DNA of 64,000 nt, from positions 32,001-96,000 of the forward strand of contig CAVRJG010000051.1 in the NCBI GenBank assembly GCA_963721455.1, given 5' to 3'. Every line of letters starts with the position of its first letter. Position 1 is the stretch's first letter. The translations under genes were made by a program, and so were the position numbers. The DNA is from an uncultured Methanosarcinaceae archaeon. GTDB lineage: Archaea > Halobacteriota > Methanosarcinia > Methanosarcinales > Methanosarcinaceae. Positions 2,252-23,580 of the stretch are shown here, one piece after another. Under the pieces are notes generated by a model. The model was not told the origin of the DNA. It did no database searches and saw only the letters and a list, made by a program, of their open reading frames with translations.

Positions 2252-4672
2252 TTGAAAAAGATAATTGTAACATTAATGCTTCTATTCTCCGTATTCTCGG
2301 CTTCAGTTTTAGCTTATGGAGAGCCGACACAGAATTCAAACGACAATACAACCGTCACTTTAATTGCAGACTTTACCATGAATCCGGCTTCTGGAACTGG
2401 GGAAGCACCACTCAGTGTACAGTTTACTGATACATCAACAGGTACACCTACAACCTGGCAATGGGACTTCAACAACGATGGTACAGTAGACAGTTCTGTA
2501 CAAAACCCCTCGTATATCTACACTACAGCCGGTACATATACAGTCAGGCTCACTGTAACGAACGCTGGAGGTAGCGATGATGAGGTGAAAAACGGATACA
2601 TCGTTATAAGTGCTCCCCTCCCTGCAACACCTGTTGCAGCGTTCACCGCAACACCGACTTCCGGCAATTCACCGCTTACTGTCACTTTCACAGATCAGTC
2701 AACAGGTACACCTACAATCTGGCAATGGGACTTCAATTCTGACGGAAAAGTGGATTCAAATAAACAAAACCCTGTTTACAAATTTAAAAACCCCGGAACT
2801 TACTCTGTCAATCTCACCGTATTCAACGGTGTCGTGTGGGATTACGAACGAATAGATGACTGTATCACTGTAGAAAATTCTCTACAGGCAGGTTTTACTG
2901 CTTCTCCTAGAGAAGGGAAAGCCCCGTTGACCGTTCAGTTCACTGATACTTCTACAGGAGCTGCAACTGGATGGTTCTGGGAATTTGGAGACGACCTTAC
3001 CTCAACTTCCCGGAATCCCAGTCACGTATATTCCGAAGCCGGCACCTATACAGTGAAGCTGACAGTGACGGATAGTTCTGGGTCGAATACCCGGGAAGTT
3101 CCTTCTTCAGTCAATGTGCTTTCCAGCACTGATCCGGTGGTCGATCCCCCTGTTAACCCTCCTGTCAATCCTCCTGTTAATCCTCCGGTAGTCGATCCTC
3201 CGGCTGTTGATCCCCCTGTTAATCCTCCTGTTGATCCTCCTGTTAATCCTCCGACTGTTGATCCTCCTGTTAATCCTCCAGCAGTCGATTCTCCTGTTAA
3301 TCCTCCGGTAGTCGACCCTCCGGCTGTTGATCCCCCTGTTAATCCTCCAGCAGTCGATACGCCGATTGTTGATCCTCCGGTAGTCGATTCTCTGTTAGTC
3401 GATTTTAAATCCGACATAACTTCTGGCAAAGCCCCTCTTATTGTCCAGTTTGAGGGCAATTCTGGTGTAGATACAGTAGCCTGGGAATGGGACTTCAATT
3501 CTGACGGACAAGTAGACTCAAAAGAAAAGAATCCTGTTTATGAGTTCAAGGACCCGGGAGCCTATAGCATTACCCTGAGAGCAGGCAATGGAACTTCTTG
3601 GGAAGATGTTACAAAAACGAATTATATTATAGTCGGAGATGGCCTTCAGGCAGGTTTTACTGCTCTCCCGACAGAAGGGAAAGCCCCGCTGACAGTTCAG
3701 TTCACTGATTATTCTACAGGTTACGTTACTTCGTGGCTGTGGGACTTTGGAGACGGCAATACATCTACCTCCCAGAACCCAATCCACACGTATTCCGAAA
3801 TCGGCAACTACTCCGTAATTCTTAACGCCAGTAACATGTACGAGTACAATGTTCTCGCCTGGACGGATTATATCACAGTCACTGAAGAAGGCGAGAGTAA
3901 TGGAGATGGCACTGGAAGCTCGGATAAAGATGGTTGGGGTTACACTGAAACAGGCGCAATTACTGGTGGAGGAGGTTCCCCTGAGCCAGCAAGTAATATT
4001 GATACCACGGTACTGACCCAGAGATTCATTACAGCTGGGAGCCGCATCAGGTACAATTTCACACAAAATGCTACCTGCATTGACTTTGTTGAATTTGATG
4101 CAAAGAGAACTATCGGAAAAACTACAACGATCATTGAACAGCTCAACGGAAGGTCAGTCCTGACTCCGGCCGAACCCGGAGGAACAGTTTACAGGTACAT
4201 GAATATCTGGGTGGGAAATAAAGGCTTTGCAACTCCGGAAAATATAGAAAATGCCGTTATAGGTTTCAGAGTCAGCAAGGCTGAAATCCCGGTGAATGAA
4301 ACCGATAATTCAACAGTTGTTCTTCACAGGTATGCAGACGGAGAGTGGACCCCCCTCCCTATCCAGAAAACGGGGGACGATGACCTCTATGTCTATTTCC
4401 AGGCCATGACTCCTGGCTTTTCACCGTTTGCAATCACTTCCGGCAGGGTAGAAGAAATTGTGCCTACAGAAGTGGATGAAGGAGTTCAGGAAGGTATCGG
4501 GCTTTCCGCTGAGGGCAAGCAGCCTGGGGAGCCTGAGAGGCCTGAGACAATTTTTGAATCCGGACTGATATCTGAAGAAGACTGGCCAGGATTTTCGAGT
4601 GCTATAGGGCCCTTTATCGGATTCATGCTAATACTTTTTATAGGCCTCGTCGTAAGAGAAAAAAGAAAATAA
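2252..4672 (+). CDS. Cell-surface protein: about 5 PKD domains, Pro-rich linker, PGF-pre-PGF domain, C-terminal TM anchor
   Basis: Signal peptide from TTG 2252 (ORF track starts 2204); repeated PLTVQFTD...W.WDF(G/N)...NP.Y.Y...GTY PKD motifs; GGGGSPEP...TPGFSPFAI PGF-pre-PGF domain; PGF-TM-REKRK tail. Confidence 0.9.
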   Translation: MKKIIVTLMLLFSVFSASVLAYGEPTQNSNDNTTVTLIADFTMNPASGTGEAPLSVQFTDTSTGTPTTWQWDFNNDGTVDSSVQNPSYIYTTAGTYTVRLTVTNAGGSDDEVKNGYIVISAPLPATPVAAFTATPTSGNSPLTVTFTDQSTGTPTIWQWDFNSDGKVDSNKQNPVYKFKNPGTYSVNLTVFNGVVWDYERIDDCITVENSLQAGFTASPREGKAPLTVQFTDTSTGAATGWFWEFGDDLTSTSRNPSHVYSEAGTYTVKLTVTDSSGSNTREVPSSVNVLSSTDPVVDPPVNPPVNPPVNPPVVDPPAVDPPVNPPVDPPVNPPTVDPPVNPPAVDSPVNPPVVDPPAVDPPVNPPAVDTPIVDPPVVDSLLVDFKSDITSGKAPLIVQFEGNSGVDTVAWEWDFNSDGQVDSKEKNPVYEFKDPGAYSITLRAGNGTSWEDVTKTNYIIVGDGLQAGFTALPTEGKAPLTVQFTDYSTGYVTSWLWDFGDGNTSTSQNPIHTYSEIGNYSVILNASNMYEYNVLAWTDYITVTEEGESNGDGTGSSDKDGWGYTETGAITGGGGSPEPASNIDTTVLTQRFITAGSRIRYNFTQNATCIDFVEFDAKRTIGKTTTIIEQLNGRSVLTPAEPGGTVYRYMNIWVGNKGFATPENIENAVIGFRVSKAEIPVNETDNSTVVLHRYADGEWTPLPIQKTGDDDLYVYFQAMTPGFSPFAITSGRVEEIVPTEVDEGVQEGIGLSAEGKQPGEPERPETIFESGLISEEDWPGFSSAIGPFIGFMLILFIGLVVREKRK
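3131..3390 (+). repeat. Coding tandem repeat PP(V/A/T)V?(D/N) stalk
   Basis: Many 12-15 bp units such as cctcctgttaat and cctccggtagtcgat. Confidence 0.9.
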
Positions 4673-7833: not shown

Positions 7834-8818
7834 TAATCCGGGCTTGGACATAATCTCTTTATGAGGTTGTAACGGGTGCGGGGAGTCCGGGCTGGCCTCC
7901 TTTTCTGTTCCCTAAAACGCTTAATGCTTCAATTGGTTGAACACGGGATCCTCAAGAAATTTTTCAGGGAAAAAAGCCAAAAAGATTGAATATTTTGCAA
8001 AGTTCTGGCTAATGATGAATTGGGAATGAATATTTGCAGCAGGCTTATCTCTTGCTTTTTCTTTCCCTGGGCATTTTCCTGTATCAATGGATATCTTTTT
8101 TCTCGGAACTGTTTTTTGCTCCCTGTCGTTTATTCCTGAATTCCTCTGGCTCTTTCCTCTGGAGAGTAAAGTTGCCAGGCGGCTTATAATCTCGAGTATT
8201 ACATAATAATAGGACAGCTTTCCCTTGCCCGTTTACAATACTGAAGATTATACTCGCCATTTTATATTACCAGAGTAGATCTCTTAAACTTCCTGAGGTT
8301 AATATACCTGTATTCGAAGCCGATTTATTTTTATGAATATTCCTGAGTTATATATTTCTCGATAAGCAATTCGGAGTATCGCGGTCTGGCAAAGTGCCAT
8401 TACGGATGTTGCAGTAAATTTTTTCCAATCTGACTCTCAGGGTAGAATGCCATGAGTTTTTTCTAAGATGTAACGCTCTGTAAAACTTACTGCAAGTTAA
8501 AAGATTAATTCCGGAAAAAGGCGGATTAAAGGCATAAAAACCTTCCAGAATTTTATAGGTCCGCTCCCATGATTATTTTTTTTCTTGGTTTTCTTTGCTG
8601 AGAACATTCCTGCAGGGATTAATATTTCTGAGTTATGGTTATTTTTGCAGGTTTATCTCTTCCAGGCTTTTTCCAGCATTTAAGGGTATCTAACAGGAGA
8701 TAGAAAACCCGGAGTACTGTGTGAAAAATAAAAGTGCTGATAGATAAATATTTATAATCTGTATAAGTAGTTTATATTAAGGTAAAAACGTAAAAGAACT
8801 TTATAGTGGGGGAAAAGT

Positions 8819-9226
8819 ATGAAAATTAGAGTAGTTAGTTCCAGAGAGGAAATTTTCACTCTCAATCCTAATGAACGTGTCGTTCATCTGGCTTTCAGGC
8901 CTTCGAACAAGGATATCTTTGCACTGGTTGAAACATGCCCGAAAATTGAGGTAATTCAGTTACCTAAATCCTACAGGCGCACGGTCTCAAAATCAATAGA
9001 AATGTTCCTTGAGATGCAGAGAATCCAGCTTATTGAAGGAGATGTCTGGGGTCACAGGAAGGACATTAACGAATATTACAGTATTCCTTCCTCAGTGATT
9101 GAGAAAATAAGGGAACTAAAATCGGAGGGTACACCTGCTGAGAGAATCGAAGAAAAGGTCTCAAGGGAAAGCAAACTCAATCCTGAGATGGTTGCTTATA
9201 TCCTGACCAAGGAAGCTCCTGCCTGA
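8819..9226 (+). CDS. DUF1699 family protein
   Basis: MKIRVVSSREEI..LNPNE..VHLAFRPSNKD...GDVWGHRKDINEYY family signature. Confidence 0.85.
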   Translation: MKIRVVSSREEIFTLNPNERVVHLAFRPSNKDIFALVETCPKIEVIQLPKSYRRTVSKSIEMFLEMQRIQLIEGDVWGHRKDINEYYSIPSSVIEKIRELKSEGTPAERIEEKVSRESKLNPEMVAYILTKEAPA

Positions 9227-15085: not shown

Positions 15086-15186
15086 GTGAACGGGTGCAAC
15101 TCTGTCGTGGTTAAGTGTCTGTGGTATGTCCTTTTATTTGGGTGTGATCTTGTAGATGTGGTCCAGAGCAGGCCCGTTCACTATGC
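15086..15186 (-). ncRNA. Candidate sRNA A (closing stem GTGAACGGG/CCCGTTCAC)
   Basis: 9-bp perfect terminal IR, inner ctctg/cagag; minus-strand TATTTATATA at 15211-15220; T-rich after stem. Confidence 0.5.
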
Positions 15187-20646: not shown

Positions 20647-22464
20647 ATGATGTCGGCAATTGAATGGGCTGAGAAATACCGGCCCAAGACCCTCAAGGAG
20701 ATCGTGGGAAACAAGAAGGCGGTACAGGATTTGGAGACCTGGGCTGAGGAGTGGCTTTCAGGCATTCCTGAGAGAAGGGCAGTGATCCTTCACGGGCCTG
20801 CAGGTGTAGGGAAGACTTCAAGTGCCCACGCTCTTGCCCGGGATCTGGGCTGGGAAGTAATCGAACTCAATGCAAGCGACCAGAGAACTGCAGGTGTGAT
20901 CGAGAAGATTGCGGGATCGGCAGCGTCGATGAAGACTCTCTTCGGAGGAAAACGCCTGATCATCCTGGACGAAGCGGACAATATCCACGGGACTGCAGAC
21001 AGAGGGGGGATGCGGGCCATTGCAGGGATTATAAAAACCACACTTCAACCAATAGTGCTGATCGCAAACGACGTTTACGGGTTGACTCCTGCTATCAGGA
21101 GCCTCTGTTTTGAAATAAAGTTCGGGTCCGTGCAGAGCCGCTCCATGGTCCCGGCTTTGAAGAAGGTATGCGAGAGTGAGGGAATTTCATGTAGCCCGGA
21201 TGCGGTCCAGAAGATTTCGGAAAGTGCGGGGGGTGACCTCCGGAGTGCAATGAACGACCTTCAGGCTTCTGCCAGCGGAAAGAAAGTGCTGGAGGCGGAG
21301 GACATCAGCACTTCAGGCAGGGACGTCAAGGAAAATATCTTCAAGGCAATGCAGAAGATATTCAAGAGCACTGACTGTAAAAGGGCCCTGGAAGCTGCCC
21401 GTGGGCTTGATGAAAGTCCTGAAGATCTTGTACACTGGATTGATGAAAACCTGCCTATCCAGTATGCCTGCAAAGACGGGGACCTCGGGGATATAAGAAC
21501 CGGTTTTGGTTATCTCTCTAAGGCTGACCTCTATCTGGGGCGCGTAAAGAAACGCCAGAACTATCGGATGTGGAGATATGCCAGTATGCTGATGGTTTGC
21601 GGAGCTGCAATCTCAAAGACAAGGCCCTACCCCGGATTTATCAAGTACCAGCAGCCTTCTCTCTGGAAGAGGCTCGGGCAGACTCGTTCGAAGCGAGATC
21701 TCAGGGACAATCTCGCTTCTACAATCGGAGAACACAGCTTCAAATCCATGCGCTATTCCAGAAATAATCTGCTGGAGCTTTACTCTCACCTGGTAAAGGA
21801 CGAGGAATCTGCGGTTGAAATTACTGCAGGCCTAGGGCTTGAACTTGAGGGATTGATATATCTCTCGGGAAGCACAAAAGCCAGCAAAAAACTGCAGAAA
21901 ATTTATGATGAGGCGCAGGAACTGCTCCTTGAAGGAAAAGAAAAATCTGAAGAAATGGAATTTTTCAAAACTCCTGCTCCTTCAGGAAACGATAAACAGG
22001 TATCCTCCGGTTCCGCAGTTAAAATTCCCGGGGGAAAAGATGTGGAATCTTCTGGCAAATCTGAAATCTCCGCTTCCCTTACTTCCGAAGGCAAGCAGAA
22101 GATCCTTAAATTTGGTTTTGACATTTCTCCGGAGGAGATCTCCGGGGAAAAGAAGAATTCAGGAAGCAATACGTCTGCTACCCTCACATCTGATGATCTT
22201 AAACCTGATACCCTTACATCTGATGAGACTAAGGCTAAGAATATTTCCTCTTTGCCAGAATCCTCTGAGAAGGGTGTATCTGGTGGCCCTGAACCGATGG
22301 CTTTCGCGGCATCTCCTGAGTTTTCAAAGCAAAAGGAACTTACAAACAGCGAACCTGTTATCAGGAAAGTTACTGAACTTAAGCCCGCAGGCCTTGAGGT
22401 CGACGCCACCGAAGTTTCTAGAAAACCCGAGTCGAAATCCCAGAAGACACTTTTCGACTTCTAA
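20647..22464 (+). CDS. rfcL: Replication factor C large subunit
   Basis: [28 protein letters not shown]; low-complexity tail ending in PIP box QKTLFDF. Confidence 0.95.
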
Positions 22465-22843
22465 TTTTTTTTCGCTCTTTGTTCAAAATAATTTACATTT
22501 TTTTCCGGACTGCAGTATCGTAAGAAGGCTTCTTTCAGATTGCATGGGACTGATGAAAAGAGAGTTGAAATGCAAAATTAGAACAAAGTTGAGATAAGTC
22601 CCACTAAGTATTTGTAACGAAATAACTTAGGCAATGAATAATTTAGTTAAAGTTAAATAATCCCTCTTGCGTGTGAAAGTTATTTAATACATCTTTAAAA
22701 ACTGCCTATATTATTTCGCGGTGGGTCCTAAAATGAGATCAACTTTGAATAGATTGAGATAAACTCCGAATAAGCTGAGATAATTTTACAAAAAGTGTGA
22801 TAATTTACAAGAAAATCGAGACACAAAAAAGAGAGAAAAGTTT

Positions 22844-22934
22844 GTGAGCGGGTTGGAGAGTTTTGGGGAATAGTTGGGGAAATAGTTGGGGGAATAGTTG
22901 GGGGTTATACTATGGAAAATAGACCCGCTCACTT
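22844..22934 (-). ncRNA. Candidate sRNA B (closing stem GTGAGCGGGT/ACCCGCTCAC, 4x CCCCAA-type loop repeats)
   Basis: 10-bp perfect terminal IR; minus-strand BRE/TATA GAAAAGC-TATTTATA ~24 nt upstream; T-tract right after stem. Confidence 0.65.
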
Positions 22935-23115
22935 GACATGACTACCTATTCATGCTATAAATAGCTTTTCACTTTATTTTTTATAATTTATAATCGAGGA
23001 TTTATAATTCAAGGCTCGTCTATTTTGCAGGAAATTATACTTCTTTATGTAGAACTCGATAATTAATGGGCGGAATTAAAACCTAAATAAATATTTCTCT
23101 TTTATGAGAATGGAA

Positions 23116-23190
23116 TGAGCGGGTTGGGGGTATGAATTGGGTTGTTGGGTTGTTGGGTGTTTATCTAACAAAAGAGAGACTCGCTCACAA
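23116..23190 (-). ncRNA. Candidate sRNA C (tandem paralog of B, CCCAACAA repeats)
   Basis: tgagcgggtt/gactcgctca IR; minus-strand TATTTATA ~22 nt upstream. Confidence 0.55.
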
Positions 23191-23503
23191 GCTAATCATG
23201 CTAATCCGATATAAATATATTTTGTTTAATGTTTATATTCCTCAAAATTACAGCAGGCTTACCTGTAAATGAAATAAATCTAATTGTCCAAAACAAGTAA
23301 ACTTTATTTCAGTTTTCCTATTTTTTCCTGTACACAAGATAGTAGACGTGAAGGATATACATCAATTTCACTTCGTGTTAATAATAATAATAATTCCTCA
23401 GATAATCTCTTAAGTTCCTCCCCTAACAAAAGAGATATATATAACTAGTGACATTTTGACCCTGCACTTAGAGCAATTCTGCAAATGTAAGCAACGGTAA
23501 AAT

Positions 23504-23580
23504 GGGCTCGTGGTCTAGTCGGTTATGACATCGCCTTTACACGGCGGGGATCCTGAGTTCGAATCTCAGCGGGCCCACCA
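23504..23580 (+). tRNA. tRNA-Val(TAC)
   Basis: GGGCTCG acceptor/CGGGCCC, anticodon arm tcgcc-tt-TAC-ac-ggcgg, T-loop GTTCGAATC, encoded CCA. Confidence 0.96.

Follow-up and report, generated by a model that had tools for sequence, protein, structure and literature searches.

What are the two short, C-rich inverted-repeat units that stand side by side in the intergenic DNA of an uncultured Methanosarcinaceae archaeon, and what could they do for the cell? The window, by which we mean the whole 64,000-nt stretch analysed here, contains two such units, B and C, which a preliminary description had read as a paralogous pair of unannotated small RNA genes on the minus strand. The sequence features that it listed, namely inverted repeats, TATA boxes, a T-tract and repeat-bearing loops, were all present on re-inspection. 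We conclude that B and C are two independently transcribed small non-coding RNA genes of roughly 85-110 nt, each with its own BRE/TATA promoter, and put the probability that they are expressed non-coding RNAs at about 0.95. The elements of the locus are the following:

22844-22932, minus strand: unit B RNA core, orthologue of Methanosarcina mazei sRNA022
22956-22970, minus strand: unit B promoter, an A-rich BRE-like GAAAAGC followed by TATTTATA at 22963-22956
22839-22836 (T4) and 22830-22825 (T6), minus strand: T-tracts after unit B, read from the minus-strand sequence
23115-23188, minus strand: unit C RNA core, orthologue of M. mazei sRNA021
23210-23224, minus strand: unit C promoter, an A-rich stretch followed by TATTTATA at 23217-23210

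Two tandem genes and their counterparts in M. mazei

Unit B is delimited by perfect 10-nt inverted arms, GTGAGCGGGT (22844-22853) and ACCCGCTCAC (22923-22932), which pair as a 10-bp clamp (22932-22923 with 22853-22844) around a G-poor loop of 69 nt; the loop holds three CCCC(C)AACUAUU(U) repeats of 12-13 nt and one degenerate fourth. The minus-strand RNA folds into the clamp alone (-16.5 kcal/mol, z = -4.6), a stability equalled by none of 200 shuffles, and RNAalifold over 18 unit B orthologues likewise returns the clamp and nothing else. Homology with sRNA022 predicts a 5' end at about position 22934. Behind the unit, T4 and T6 are likely to be oligo-T termination signals, as predicted from the sequence, and the first T-tract past the clamp is retained by most unit B orthologues; since sRNA022 is annotated with 186 nt in M. 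mazei, read-through beyond this tract is possible. Among the 18 orthologues, the CCCCCAACUAUU repeats number one to four per unit.

In unit C, the clamp arms TGAGCGGG and CTCGCTCA (23116-23187) are extended by a closing pair, 23188/23115, that is G.U on the minus strand, and the 54-nt loop comprises three CCCAA(CA) repeats and CCCAAUUCAUACCCCCAA. The fold of this unit is weak in the source genome (z = -0.97; 32 of 200 shuffles are equally stable), owing to a single A.C mismatch in the clamp. Among 14 C units, A.C occurs at this pair in the source genome only, and one other unit has G.U there. The 14 orthologues align with a mean column identity of 90%, and RNAalifold on the C orthologues gives the clamp only. 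By homology, the transcript is predicted to start at 23188 and to end about 10 nt beyond the clamp.

The proposal that these are minus-strand genes with promoters of their own was borne out. From TATTTATA to the first clamp base there are 23 nt in unit B and 21 nt in unit C; the block AAAGCTATTTATA at the B promoter is kept in every B orthologue listed, and AAAATATATTTATA at the C promoter by most C orthologues. In relatives, the TATA hexamer stands 22-24 nt ahead of the clamp in B (19 of 19 units), 20-23 nt in C (16 of 16) and 22-23 nt in a third tandem unit, D (6 of 6), so that a spacing of 20-24 nt is found in all 41 B, C and D units. Unit D, which 6 of the 19 loci contain, was not found in the source genome. 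Across the order, a TATA-like box lies upstream in 18 of the 19 matches listed; the upstream region of the remaining one is cut by a contig end. The conservation of stem, TATA spacing and C-rich loops that the preliminary description expected in other Methanosarcina was found. Its predictions for the 5' ends (near 22933 and 23189) agree with the annotation of the M. mazei genes as well: sRNA022 begins 2 nt ahead of the clamp, sRNA021 at the first clamp base.

These orthologues came to light by comparison with published Methanosarcina sRNA lists, which identified B as sRNA022, C as sRNA021 and sRNA047 as a paralogue. The supplement of an M. mazei Ribo-seq study (PMC11456600), whose sRNA list derives from a 2009 dRNA-seq study (its reference 27), places sRNA021 at 336282-336365 on the plus strand (84 nt; RNA 29,949-142,299 rpkm), sRNA022 at 336727-336912 on the plus strand (19,663-45,761 rpkm) and sRNA047 at 846462-846629 on the minus strand (481,730-698,607 rpkm). 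One locus of our set, L017, has units that are letter-identical to the printed sRNA021 and sRNA022; compared with it, source-genome B with its promoter is 82% identical over 166 nt and C with its promoter 84% over 116 nt. Some 16-18% of positions therefore differ from the M. mazei genes, while tandem order, strand logic, clamp, loop motifs, promoter and 5' end are shared. C lies upstream of B on one strand in both organisms, with a start-to-start distance of 271 nt here and 445 nt in M. mazei, and most of the loci L002-L019 have B and C in tandem. What sets the copies in the window apart is the loss of a AAACCCAUAU segment from unit B and, in unit C, weaker C-runs and the clamp mismatch. Since the M. 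mazei orthologues are already listed, B and C are nothing new as transcripts, and the novelty claimed for them did not hold. Two other identities were rejected: sRNA41, as the printed sRNA041 (799881-800086, minus strand) has neither clamp nor loops, and sRNA162/sRNA171, with 191 nt and three stem-loops.

RNA libraries from relatives also cover the locus. Contigs from such libraries span 22833-22971, and unit B is covered by contigs of two related organisms at depths of 569 and 70, with strand and ends not resolved; tRNA-Val contigs in the same runs have depths of 366-857 and 55-351. These are contig-level depths from runs with small shares throughout (0.05-0.11), and because the runs derive from relatives, flanks without RNA cover prove nothing.

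An RNA family built on a covarying clamp

How far does this type of RNA extend? A covariance model (R1) matches unit B with 84.2 bits (E = 3.5e-15) and unit C with 55.1 bits (E = 1.3e-8), and with it the family was detected in 56 of the 59 genomes from the genus, in 130 of the 151 from the order and in five of the order's six families; 134 genomes from 24 other families of the phylum gave no match. The proposal that the units belong to a paralogous family was supported. B and C are lineage-specific expansions of this family, which is spread through most of the order, and its oldest member is the sRNA047 type. The first scan for RNAs with a clamp and a C-rich loop had returned 285 regions, mostly spurious, from which members were retained by eye.

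The covariation check on the clamp, suggested at the outset, supported the helix. When 19 sequences drawn from several genera are aligned, 97.9% of 190 cells are paired and 8 of the 10 clamp pairs show changes on both sides, a result that none of 500 shuffles reached; in the genus alignment of 31 sequences, 97.1% of 310 cells are paired and three pairs show such two-sided changes. None of the 31, which represent four paralogue types, deviates at clamp positions 2-7. The recommended Rfam search matched no family, C/D-box sRNAs and Y RNA included: units B and C gave no hit with E up to 10, and unit A, the C15 locus and two order-wide loci none with E up to 1. One family, marked across the order by clamp covariation and an invariant motif, thus has no Rfam entry and could be filed as an RNA family.

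Further copies exist in the source genome. Unit A, an unlinked copy, is identical at 73 of 73 positions to the clamp-to-clamp part of sRNA047, and RNAs of the sRNA047 type carry an invariant CCCACUCCC motif. A clamp-variant search of the source genome uncovered one more member within the window:

15086-15181, minus strand: further family member, counterpart of M. mazei sRNA023

Its clamp, GUGAACGGG with CCCGUUCAC, has pair 5 altered on both sides and encloses a 78-nt C/A-rich loop, with a TATA box upstream. The distance between this gene and B/C is 7.7 kb here and about 11 kb in M. mazei.

The surroundings of the genes are not constant. Across 13 loci from several genera, we found no conserved gene neighbour that would point to a partner protein; depending on the genus, the neighbours are an H+-pyrophosphatase, MnhG and Sua5, or a MarR-like gene and MoaA. 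A reading of the units as Y RNA-like was rejected because no TROVE (Ro) gene was found in the source genome, whereas control genomes did give matches.

Functional strand and coding potential

The C-rich RNA might be incidental: the preliminary description had cautioned that the G-rich plus strand could be the functional one, as an RNA with four G-tracts or as a DNA G-quadruplex element. That strand indeed has at least four tracts of G4-5, its folds score z = -2.3 and -2.1, the clamp mismatch of source-genome unit C becomes G.U on it, and the M. mazei list includes one predicted antisense small ORF, sORF_035. Yet the family alignment of 31 sequences contains 16 clamp cells with G.U or U.G that fit the C-rich strand and only one that fits the G-rich strand. 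Conservation reaches about 60 nt on the side of the minus-strand TATA box but only about 13 nt on the other, the fixed TATA spacing argues for the minus strand, and all three M. mazei sRNAs are annotated on the C-rich strand. Given the wobble pairs in the clamp and the conserved minus-strand promoter, the caveat can be dropped; we give a functional plus strand almost no credence.

But could the minus-strand transcripts be messages for small proteins? A GTG at the first clamp base might serve as the leaderless start of a translated small ORF, and the M. mazei Ribo-seq study (PMC11456600) lists sORF_036 on sRNA021 and sORF_037 on sRNA022 (38 and 42 aa as printed), both marked 'yes' for manual curation in its supplement. 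In the source genome, a GTG ORF of 48 aa occupies 22786-22932 of the minus strand, and the first 11 residues, VSGSLFHSITP, are common to most B copies. Against this, the translation efficiencies (TE) are 0.07-0.17 for sRNA021 and 0.10-0.16 for sRNA022, in a study that set its cut-off for translation at 0.5 and found a mean TE of 0.19 for tRNAs, and the proteomics column of its supplement is blank for sRNA021, sRNA022 and sRNA047. Among 16 C units and the B copies, neither the reading frame nor the peptide is conserved: 8 of the 16 C units run into a stop after 6-9 codons, source-genome C encoding VSESLFC before its stop, and the frame shifts among B units, whose lengths range over 74-103 nt, so that the predicted peptides differ in their C-terminal parts. 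Since 1-nt changes in C-run length shift the frame, B peptides share only what the conserved 5' part of the RNA dictates. The GTG itself would moreover be buried in a 10-bp G+C-rich helix. With GTG ORFs that are not conserved, RNAs of the sRNA021/sRNA022 type, though listed with translated small ORFs, are probably not coding, and we consider translation from the clamp GTG very unlikely.

Possible roles of the C-rich loops

What, then, might these non-coding RNAs do? We tentatively propose, at odds somewhat short of even, that the loops act in trans and that their C-runs mask G-run ribosome-binding sites (RBSs). The first and last 10 nt form the G+C-rich clamp and leave a nearly G-free loop of 54-69 nt that is predicted to be unpaired. 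C-runs within this loop (CCCCCAA, UUCCCCC) could then pair with G-runs in mRNAs, chiefly with Shine-Dalgarno (SD) sequences of the UGGGGGAA type. This G-rich SD type precedes about 5% of genes, and pairing there would keep the 30S subunit from binding. With several C-runs in each molecule, more than one gene copy and a very high abundance, the RNAs would act as a stoichiometric, multivalent brake, and the clamp may tie both ends against exonucleases and hold the loop open.

On crude gene calls, GGGGG stands 3-18 nt upstream of 7 of 44 genes in the window, compared with 172 of 3251 genome-wide, and at 4-17 nt ahead of candidate starts its enrichment is 1.9-fold, comparable with that of AGGTG, GAGGT and GGTGA. 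The 16S tail, CACCUCC, fits the proposal poorly, as C-runs would need an A.C mismatch to pair with the more frequent GGAGG sites. The loops pair better at start regions than in gene interiors, the energy for unit B averaging -12.3 versus -9.3 kcal/mol, but start regions are biased towards G because the start codons were picked by SD strength. Start regions at or below -16 kcal/mol number 858 with the real and 765 with the reversed loop of unit A, 762 and 628 for B, and 375 and 391 for C; the reversed loops, which keep composition and runs, thus behave much like the real ones. As the scan admitted long bulged duplexes and used SD-selected starts, it is uninformative, not negative; a specific conserved mRNA target emerged neither from it nor from motif searches of the genome.

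One individual site had been proposed at the outset as a partner of the B repeats: atagtgggggaa, at 8803-8814, lies 4 nt ahead of the ATG of a gene for a 135-aa DUF1699 protein. Its conservation is partial, which counts against the proposal: the GGGGGAA core is kept in 16 of 17 readable upstream regions of orthologues, whereas its flank alternates between AUAG and ACAG while the CUAU of the sRNA is invariant. A dominant target of the invariant motif was rejected: its complement, GGGAGTGGG, has 24 matches in the genome, of which one lies at a called RBS and two are unit A antisense, and GGGGAGTGGGG has 36 with up to one mismatch, with few matches of either at start codons and some antisense to family members. 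Pairing with rRNA was rejected as well: against 5.8 kb of an rRNA operon, the longest Watson-Crick matches measure 8-10 nt for the loops of A, B, C and E, which falls within the 8-12 nt of 30 random windows.

A serious rival to RBS pairing, if on balance an unlikely one, is a protein sponge: a protein would bind to the C/A-rich repeats, to the U-tract that follows the 5' arm, or to both, and would be titrated or carried by this abundant, multivalent RNA. U-rich RNA is preferred by Lsm proteins, and the U-tract could be an Sm-like (Lsm) site. Order-wide members listed have a U-run of at least four behind the 5' arm, the source genome has two LSM genes, and one genome, G186, has an LSM gene at a distance of two genes from its sRNA047-type gene. 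The CCCCCAACUAUU motif is conserved at variable copy number in B orthologues, the very high RNA abundance fits a sponge, and so do scans that gave no specific mRNA target signal. The sequence-conserved clamp could itself be a protein recognition element, as more drift than the invariance of positions 2-7 would be expected of a purely structural stem; the clamp covaries where its sequence changes across the order, however, so the constraint is at least partly structural. Set against a sponge are the gene neighbourhood, which differs between genera, and the fact that no partner protein was identified for the repeats. The literature searched contained no reports of protein interactions of these sRNAs and no functional study of sRNA021, sRNA022, sRNA023 or sRNA047. 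With the whole RNA conserved, clamp sequence and U-tract included, and repeat copy number varying, the pattern of conservation is no worse a fit to recognition by a protein than to pairing, and may be a better one.

Sponge RNAs are familiar from bacteria, with CsrB/RsmZ and CrcZ as examples. B and C resemble them in that a short motif recurs many times in accessible RNA, its copy number varies and the abundance is high. Their motif is C/A-rich and not GGA, and no partner gene is conserved alongside, so that membership in this group cannot be claimed.

For masking of RBSs by loop C-runs, the reading that we prefer, precedents come from the same genus. In M. mazei, sRNA162 has been shown to act by RBS masking, and a review reports the same for sRNA154 and sRNA41; according to these accounts, all three act in trans and mask RBSs with single-stranded regions. 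B and C are not homologous to sRNA162, with its three stem-loops, and the printed sRNA154, like sRNA041, has neither their clamp nor their loops; sRNA041 does carry a CCUCC-type stretch.

Among bacteria, RsaE/RoxS are C-rich-loop sRNAs. In published descriptions, sX13 of Xanthomonas represses via C-rich loops, 6C of Mycobacterium binds its targets through such loops and is chaperone-free, and LhrC1-5 of Listeria are multicopy RNAs from tandem genes with three redundant CU-rich sites each. As described, sX13, 6C and LhrC all use unpaired C-rich motifs to bind G-rich ones located at the RBS or close to it, and they share redundancy, high expression and independence from chaperones. The parallel is one of analogy only: each bacterial C-motif sits in the apical loop of its own hairpin, whereas here three to five motifs share one clamp-closed loop.

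Could the family be what sX13, 6C and RsaE are in bacteria, built in archaea on a different scaffold: a global stoichiometric regulator of translation that pairs with the roughly 5% of mRNAs with G-run SD sequences or titrates a factor reading C-rich strands? We regard this broader view as doubtful. RNAs of the sRNA021, sRNA022 and sRNA047 types are among the most abundant small RNAs of a model methanogen, sRNA047 reaching about 0.5-0.7 million rpkm, and if C-runs do mask G-run RBSs, they would add a global level of control over translation in methane-producing archaea. The share of genes with such sites is alike in the two settings: G-rich motifs are reported at the RBS of 5% of Xanthomonas genes, compared with 5.3% here by a crude count.

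The tandem units and their M. mazei counterparts

Two small RNA genes, units B and C, lie on the minus strand of one intergenic region. Each is closed by a clamp, a helix of the RNA's 5' and 3' ends:

20647-22464, plus strand: gene for a 605-aa AAA+ clamp-loader-like protein, bordering the intergenic region
22465-23503: intergenic region holding units B and C
22932 down to 22844, minus strand: unit B, GUGAGCGGGU + 69 nt + ACCCGCUCAC
23188 down to 23115, minus strand: unit C, arms as in unit B except for a G.U pair at the closing position and a single A.C mismatch
23504-23580: tRNA-Val(TAC), the other border

The arms of unit B form a perfect 10-nt inverted repeat around a loop that nearly lacks G and contains CCCCCAACUAUU, CCCCCAACUAUUU, CCCCAACUAUU and CCCCAAAACUCU; in the loop of unit C, CCCAAUUCAUACCCCCAA comes after three CCCAA(CA) units. 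From the end of TATTTATA to the first base there are 23 nt in unit B and 21 nt in unit C, and a T4 and a T6 tract lie downstream of unit B. The minus-strand RNA of unit B folds into the clamp alone (-16.5 kcal/mol, z = -4.6, 0/200 shuffles equally stable), while our copy of unit C folds weakly (z = -0.97) because of the A.C mismatch in its clamp. The 17-nt spacers between TATA box and clamp (22941-22957 and 23187-23203) are 82% alike; the promoter was therefore part of the duplication that made the pair.

A clamp-motif search of the supplements of a Ribo-seq study of M. mazei (PMC11456600) located counterparts in that species (NC_003901.1):

336282-336365, plus strand: sRNA021, 84 nt, 5' end at the first G of the clamp; corresponds to unit C
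336727-336912, plus strand: sRNA022, 186 nt, 5' end 2 nt ahead of the clamp; corresponds to unit B
846462-846629, minus strand: sRNA047, 168 nt; corresponds to unit A, an unlinked copy in our genome (C54:15857-15929)

The units of one fetched locus (L017) are identical to the sequences printed for sRNA021 and sRNA022, and our unit A matches M. mazei sRNA047 at 73/73 positions. The features that the preliminary description had seen in units B and C were confirmed, and its interpretation is supported in part: the reading as sRNA genes holds, with orthologues catalogued as sRNAs on the C-rich strand; the novelty it had claimed for them as transcripts is gone, the orthologues having already been catalogued as sRNA021 and sRNA022. 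The same supplements give RNA rpkm values of 29,949-142,299 for sRNA021, 19,663-45,761 for sRNA022 and 481,730-698,607 for sRNA047, none changing significantly with nitrogen supply; according to the main text, the sRNA list was taken from a 2009 dRNA-seq study (reference 27 therein). Among the papers that could be searched, by sRNA names and by motifs, we found no archaeal one discussing these three RNAs. What is new here is the orthology assignment, the case against the small ORFs listed on them, and the covariance model, together with the taxonomic range and the covariation that it shows. As identities, sRNA041 (by number the published sRNA41) was ruled out by its differing sequence and sRNA162 by its differing architecture. 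A further paralogue, sRNA023, has the clamp GUGAACGGG / CCCGUUCAC; its counterpart in the window, another family member, has this clamp too, with both bases of pair 5 altered:

15086-15181, minus strand: 78-nt C/A-rich loop, TATA box ~30 nt upstream

Clamp conservation from genus to order

Of 24 other genomes in the genus, 18 matched a 201-nt query around unit B, with identities of 77-90%. Most fetched loci carry B and C in tandem, joined in 6/19 by a third unit, D. Conservation extends ~60 nt upstream, on the minus-strand promoter side, versus only ~13 nt downstream, and the TATA box lies 20-24 nt from the clamp in 41/41 units. The 10-bp clamp is the sole structure predicted by RNAalifold (18 B and 14 C orthologues). 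When 31 A-, B-, C- and D-type sequences are aligned, 97.1% of clamp cells pair and three pairs show double-sided changes; 16 G.U/U.G cells are permissible pairs on the C-rich strand alone versus one fitting the other strand, though 10 of the 16 represent a single inherited change in the C lineage.

A covariance model trained on these 31 sequences gave three matches and a weak one in our genome, 1-5 copies per genome in 56/59 genomes of the genus, and matches in 130/151 genomes of the order (21/23 genera, 5/6 families). A draw across the phylum, which doubles as a specificity control, hit 15/16 genomes of our family and 0/134 from 24 other families. The 19 order-wide matches inspected have the clamp GUGAGCGGG / CCCGCUCAC or one of its covarying variants (AUAAGCGGG / CCCGCUUAU, ACGAGCGGG / CCCGCUCGU, GCGAGCGGG / CCCGCUCGC, UUGCGCGGG / CCCGCGCAA, CUGACGGG / CCCGUCAG), a U-run after the 5' arm and the sRNA047-type motif ACCCCCACUCCC(C)AA; a TATA-like box lies upstream in 18, the upstream region of the 19th being cut by a contig end. 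In their alignment 97.9% of cells pair and 8/10 pairs show double-sided changes, equalled by 0/500 shuffles. The sRNA047-type match scores an identical 47.4 bits in ~35 genomes of the genus. Units B and C thus appear to have arisen by expansion of an old core RNA at the level of the genus.

Coding capacity and candidate function

Two small ORFs passed manual curation ('yes') in the supplement of PMC11456600: sORF_036 on sRNA021, printed as 38 aa, and sORF_037 on sRNA022, printed as 42 aa. That the units encode these peptides is nevertheless very improbable. Their GTG start sits within the clamp, and translation from it stops after 6-9 codons in 8/16 C units (after 7 in ours). Length differences of single nucleotides among B units restrict what their peptides share to the stretch that the conserved RNA 5' end dictates. 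Average TE in the same source is 0.17 and 0.07 (sRNA021) and 0.16 and 0.10 (sRNA022), under its cut-off of 0.5 and beside a tRNA mean of 0.19. We read both RNAs as non-coding.

Our candidate function, at a probability of roughly 40%, is pairing with G-run ribosome-binding sites (RBSs). GGGGG is 1.9-fold enriched upstream of candidate starts and, by crude gene calls, occupies the RBS of ~5% of genes (172/3251 genome-wide, 7/44 in the window), and the loops are predicted to bind start regions better than gene interiors. This mode of action is established for M. mazei sRNA162 and for the bacterial C-rich-loop sRNAs (Xanthomonas sX13, Mycobacterium 6C, Listeria LhrC1-5), which have in common with the RNAs of our units that they are multivalent, abundant and multicopy. 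However, reversed loops perform almost equally on start regions, no site in our genome stands out as dominant for the complement of the invariant sRNA047-type motif, and rRNA gave no match to the loops above background. At the DUF1699 RBS (8803-8814), proposed as a target in the preliminary description, the conserved part is the GGGGGAA core only. A protein sponge or scaffold, with the RNAs titrating or carrying a bound protein, is a serious but somewhat less probable alternative: a clamp kept at sequence level across the genus, a U-tract and a repeat of varying copy number suit protein binding at least as well as pairing. The neighbouring genes are not conserved, and a candidate partner did not emerge. 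A plus-strand or DNA role is barely credible, and the remaining odds go to something not yet thought of.

The DUF1699 gene itself (8819-9226, plus strand) belongs to a multicopy family with 13 matches in our genome and 5-22 in others. Throughout the genus, protein identity among its orthologues is 97-99% and the 5' UTR block AACUUUAYAGUGGGGGAA is kept; the constraint is unusually strong for a protein of unknown function. In one genome from another family of the order, the sRNA047-type gene adjoins a MarR-like gene and then an LSM gene at 3411-3632 (locus L061, G186:C91, 3001-3632), an arrangement seen in one genus only; a second genome (L055, G132) has the same MarR-like neighbour on a contig that stops before any LSM position.

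Related RNA-like genes elsewhere

A second set of minus-strand, small RNA-like genes, chosen by eye out of a noisy scan, lies in our genome outside the window:

C15:169589-169672
C15:167518-167595
C15:79812-79894
C62:13415-13517
~C62:11227-11338

The build is the same (TATA box, 12-bp clamp, C-rich loop) with a different clamp, GGGCAUCUG / CAGAUGCCC. That CCCCAAUUCAUACCCCCA is common to the unit C loop and one loop of this set suggests a single superfamily whose clamps are exchangeable. Also in our genome outside the window, on the minus strand of C52 (~94,150-94,250), a clamp of yet another type, GAACGGGCGAG / CUCGCUCGUUC, encloses a further sRNA047-like loop with ACUAACCCCCCACUCCCAAA after its U-tract, and a TATA box precedes it; the locus was missed by model R1, the covariance model. 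In M. mazei, the 'hypothetical protein' MM_RS01395 (NC_003901.1:337026-337259), as annotated in the supplements of PMC11456600, is antisense to a D-type unit, and its coding strand includes the reverse complement of GUGAGCGGAUUCC...CCGCUCAC; this CDS may be spurious and the D-type sRNA the real gene.
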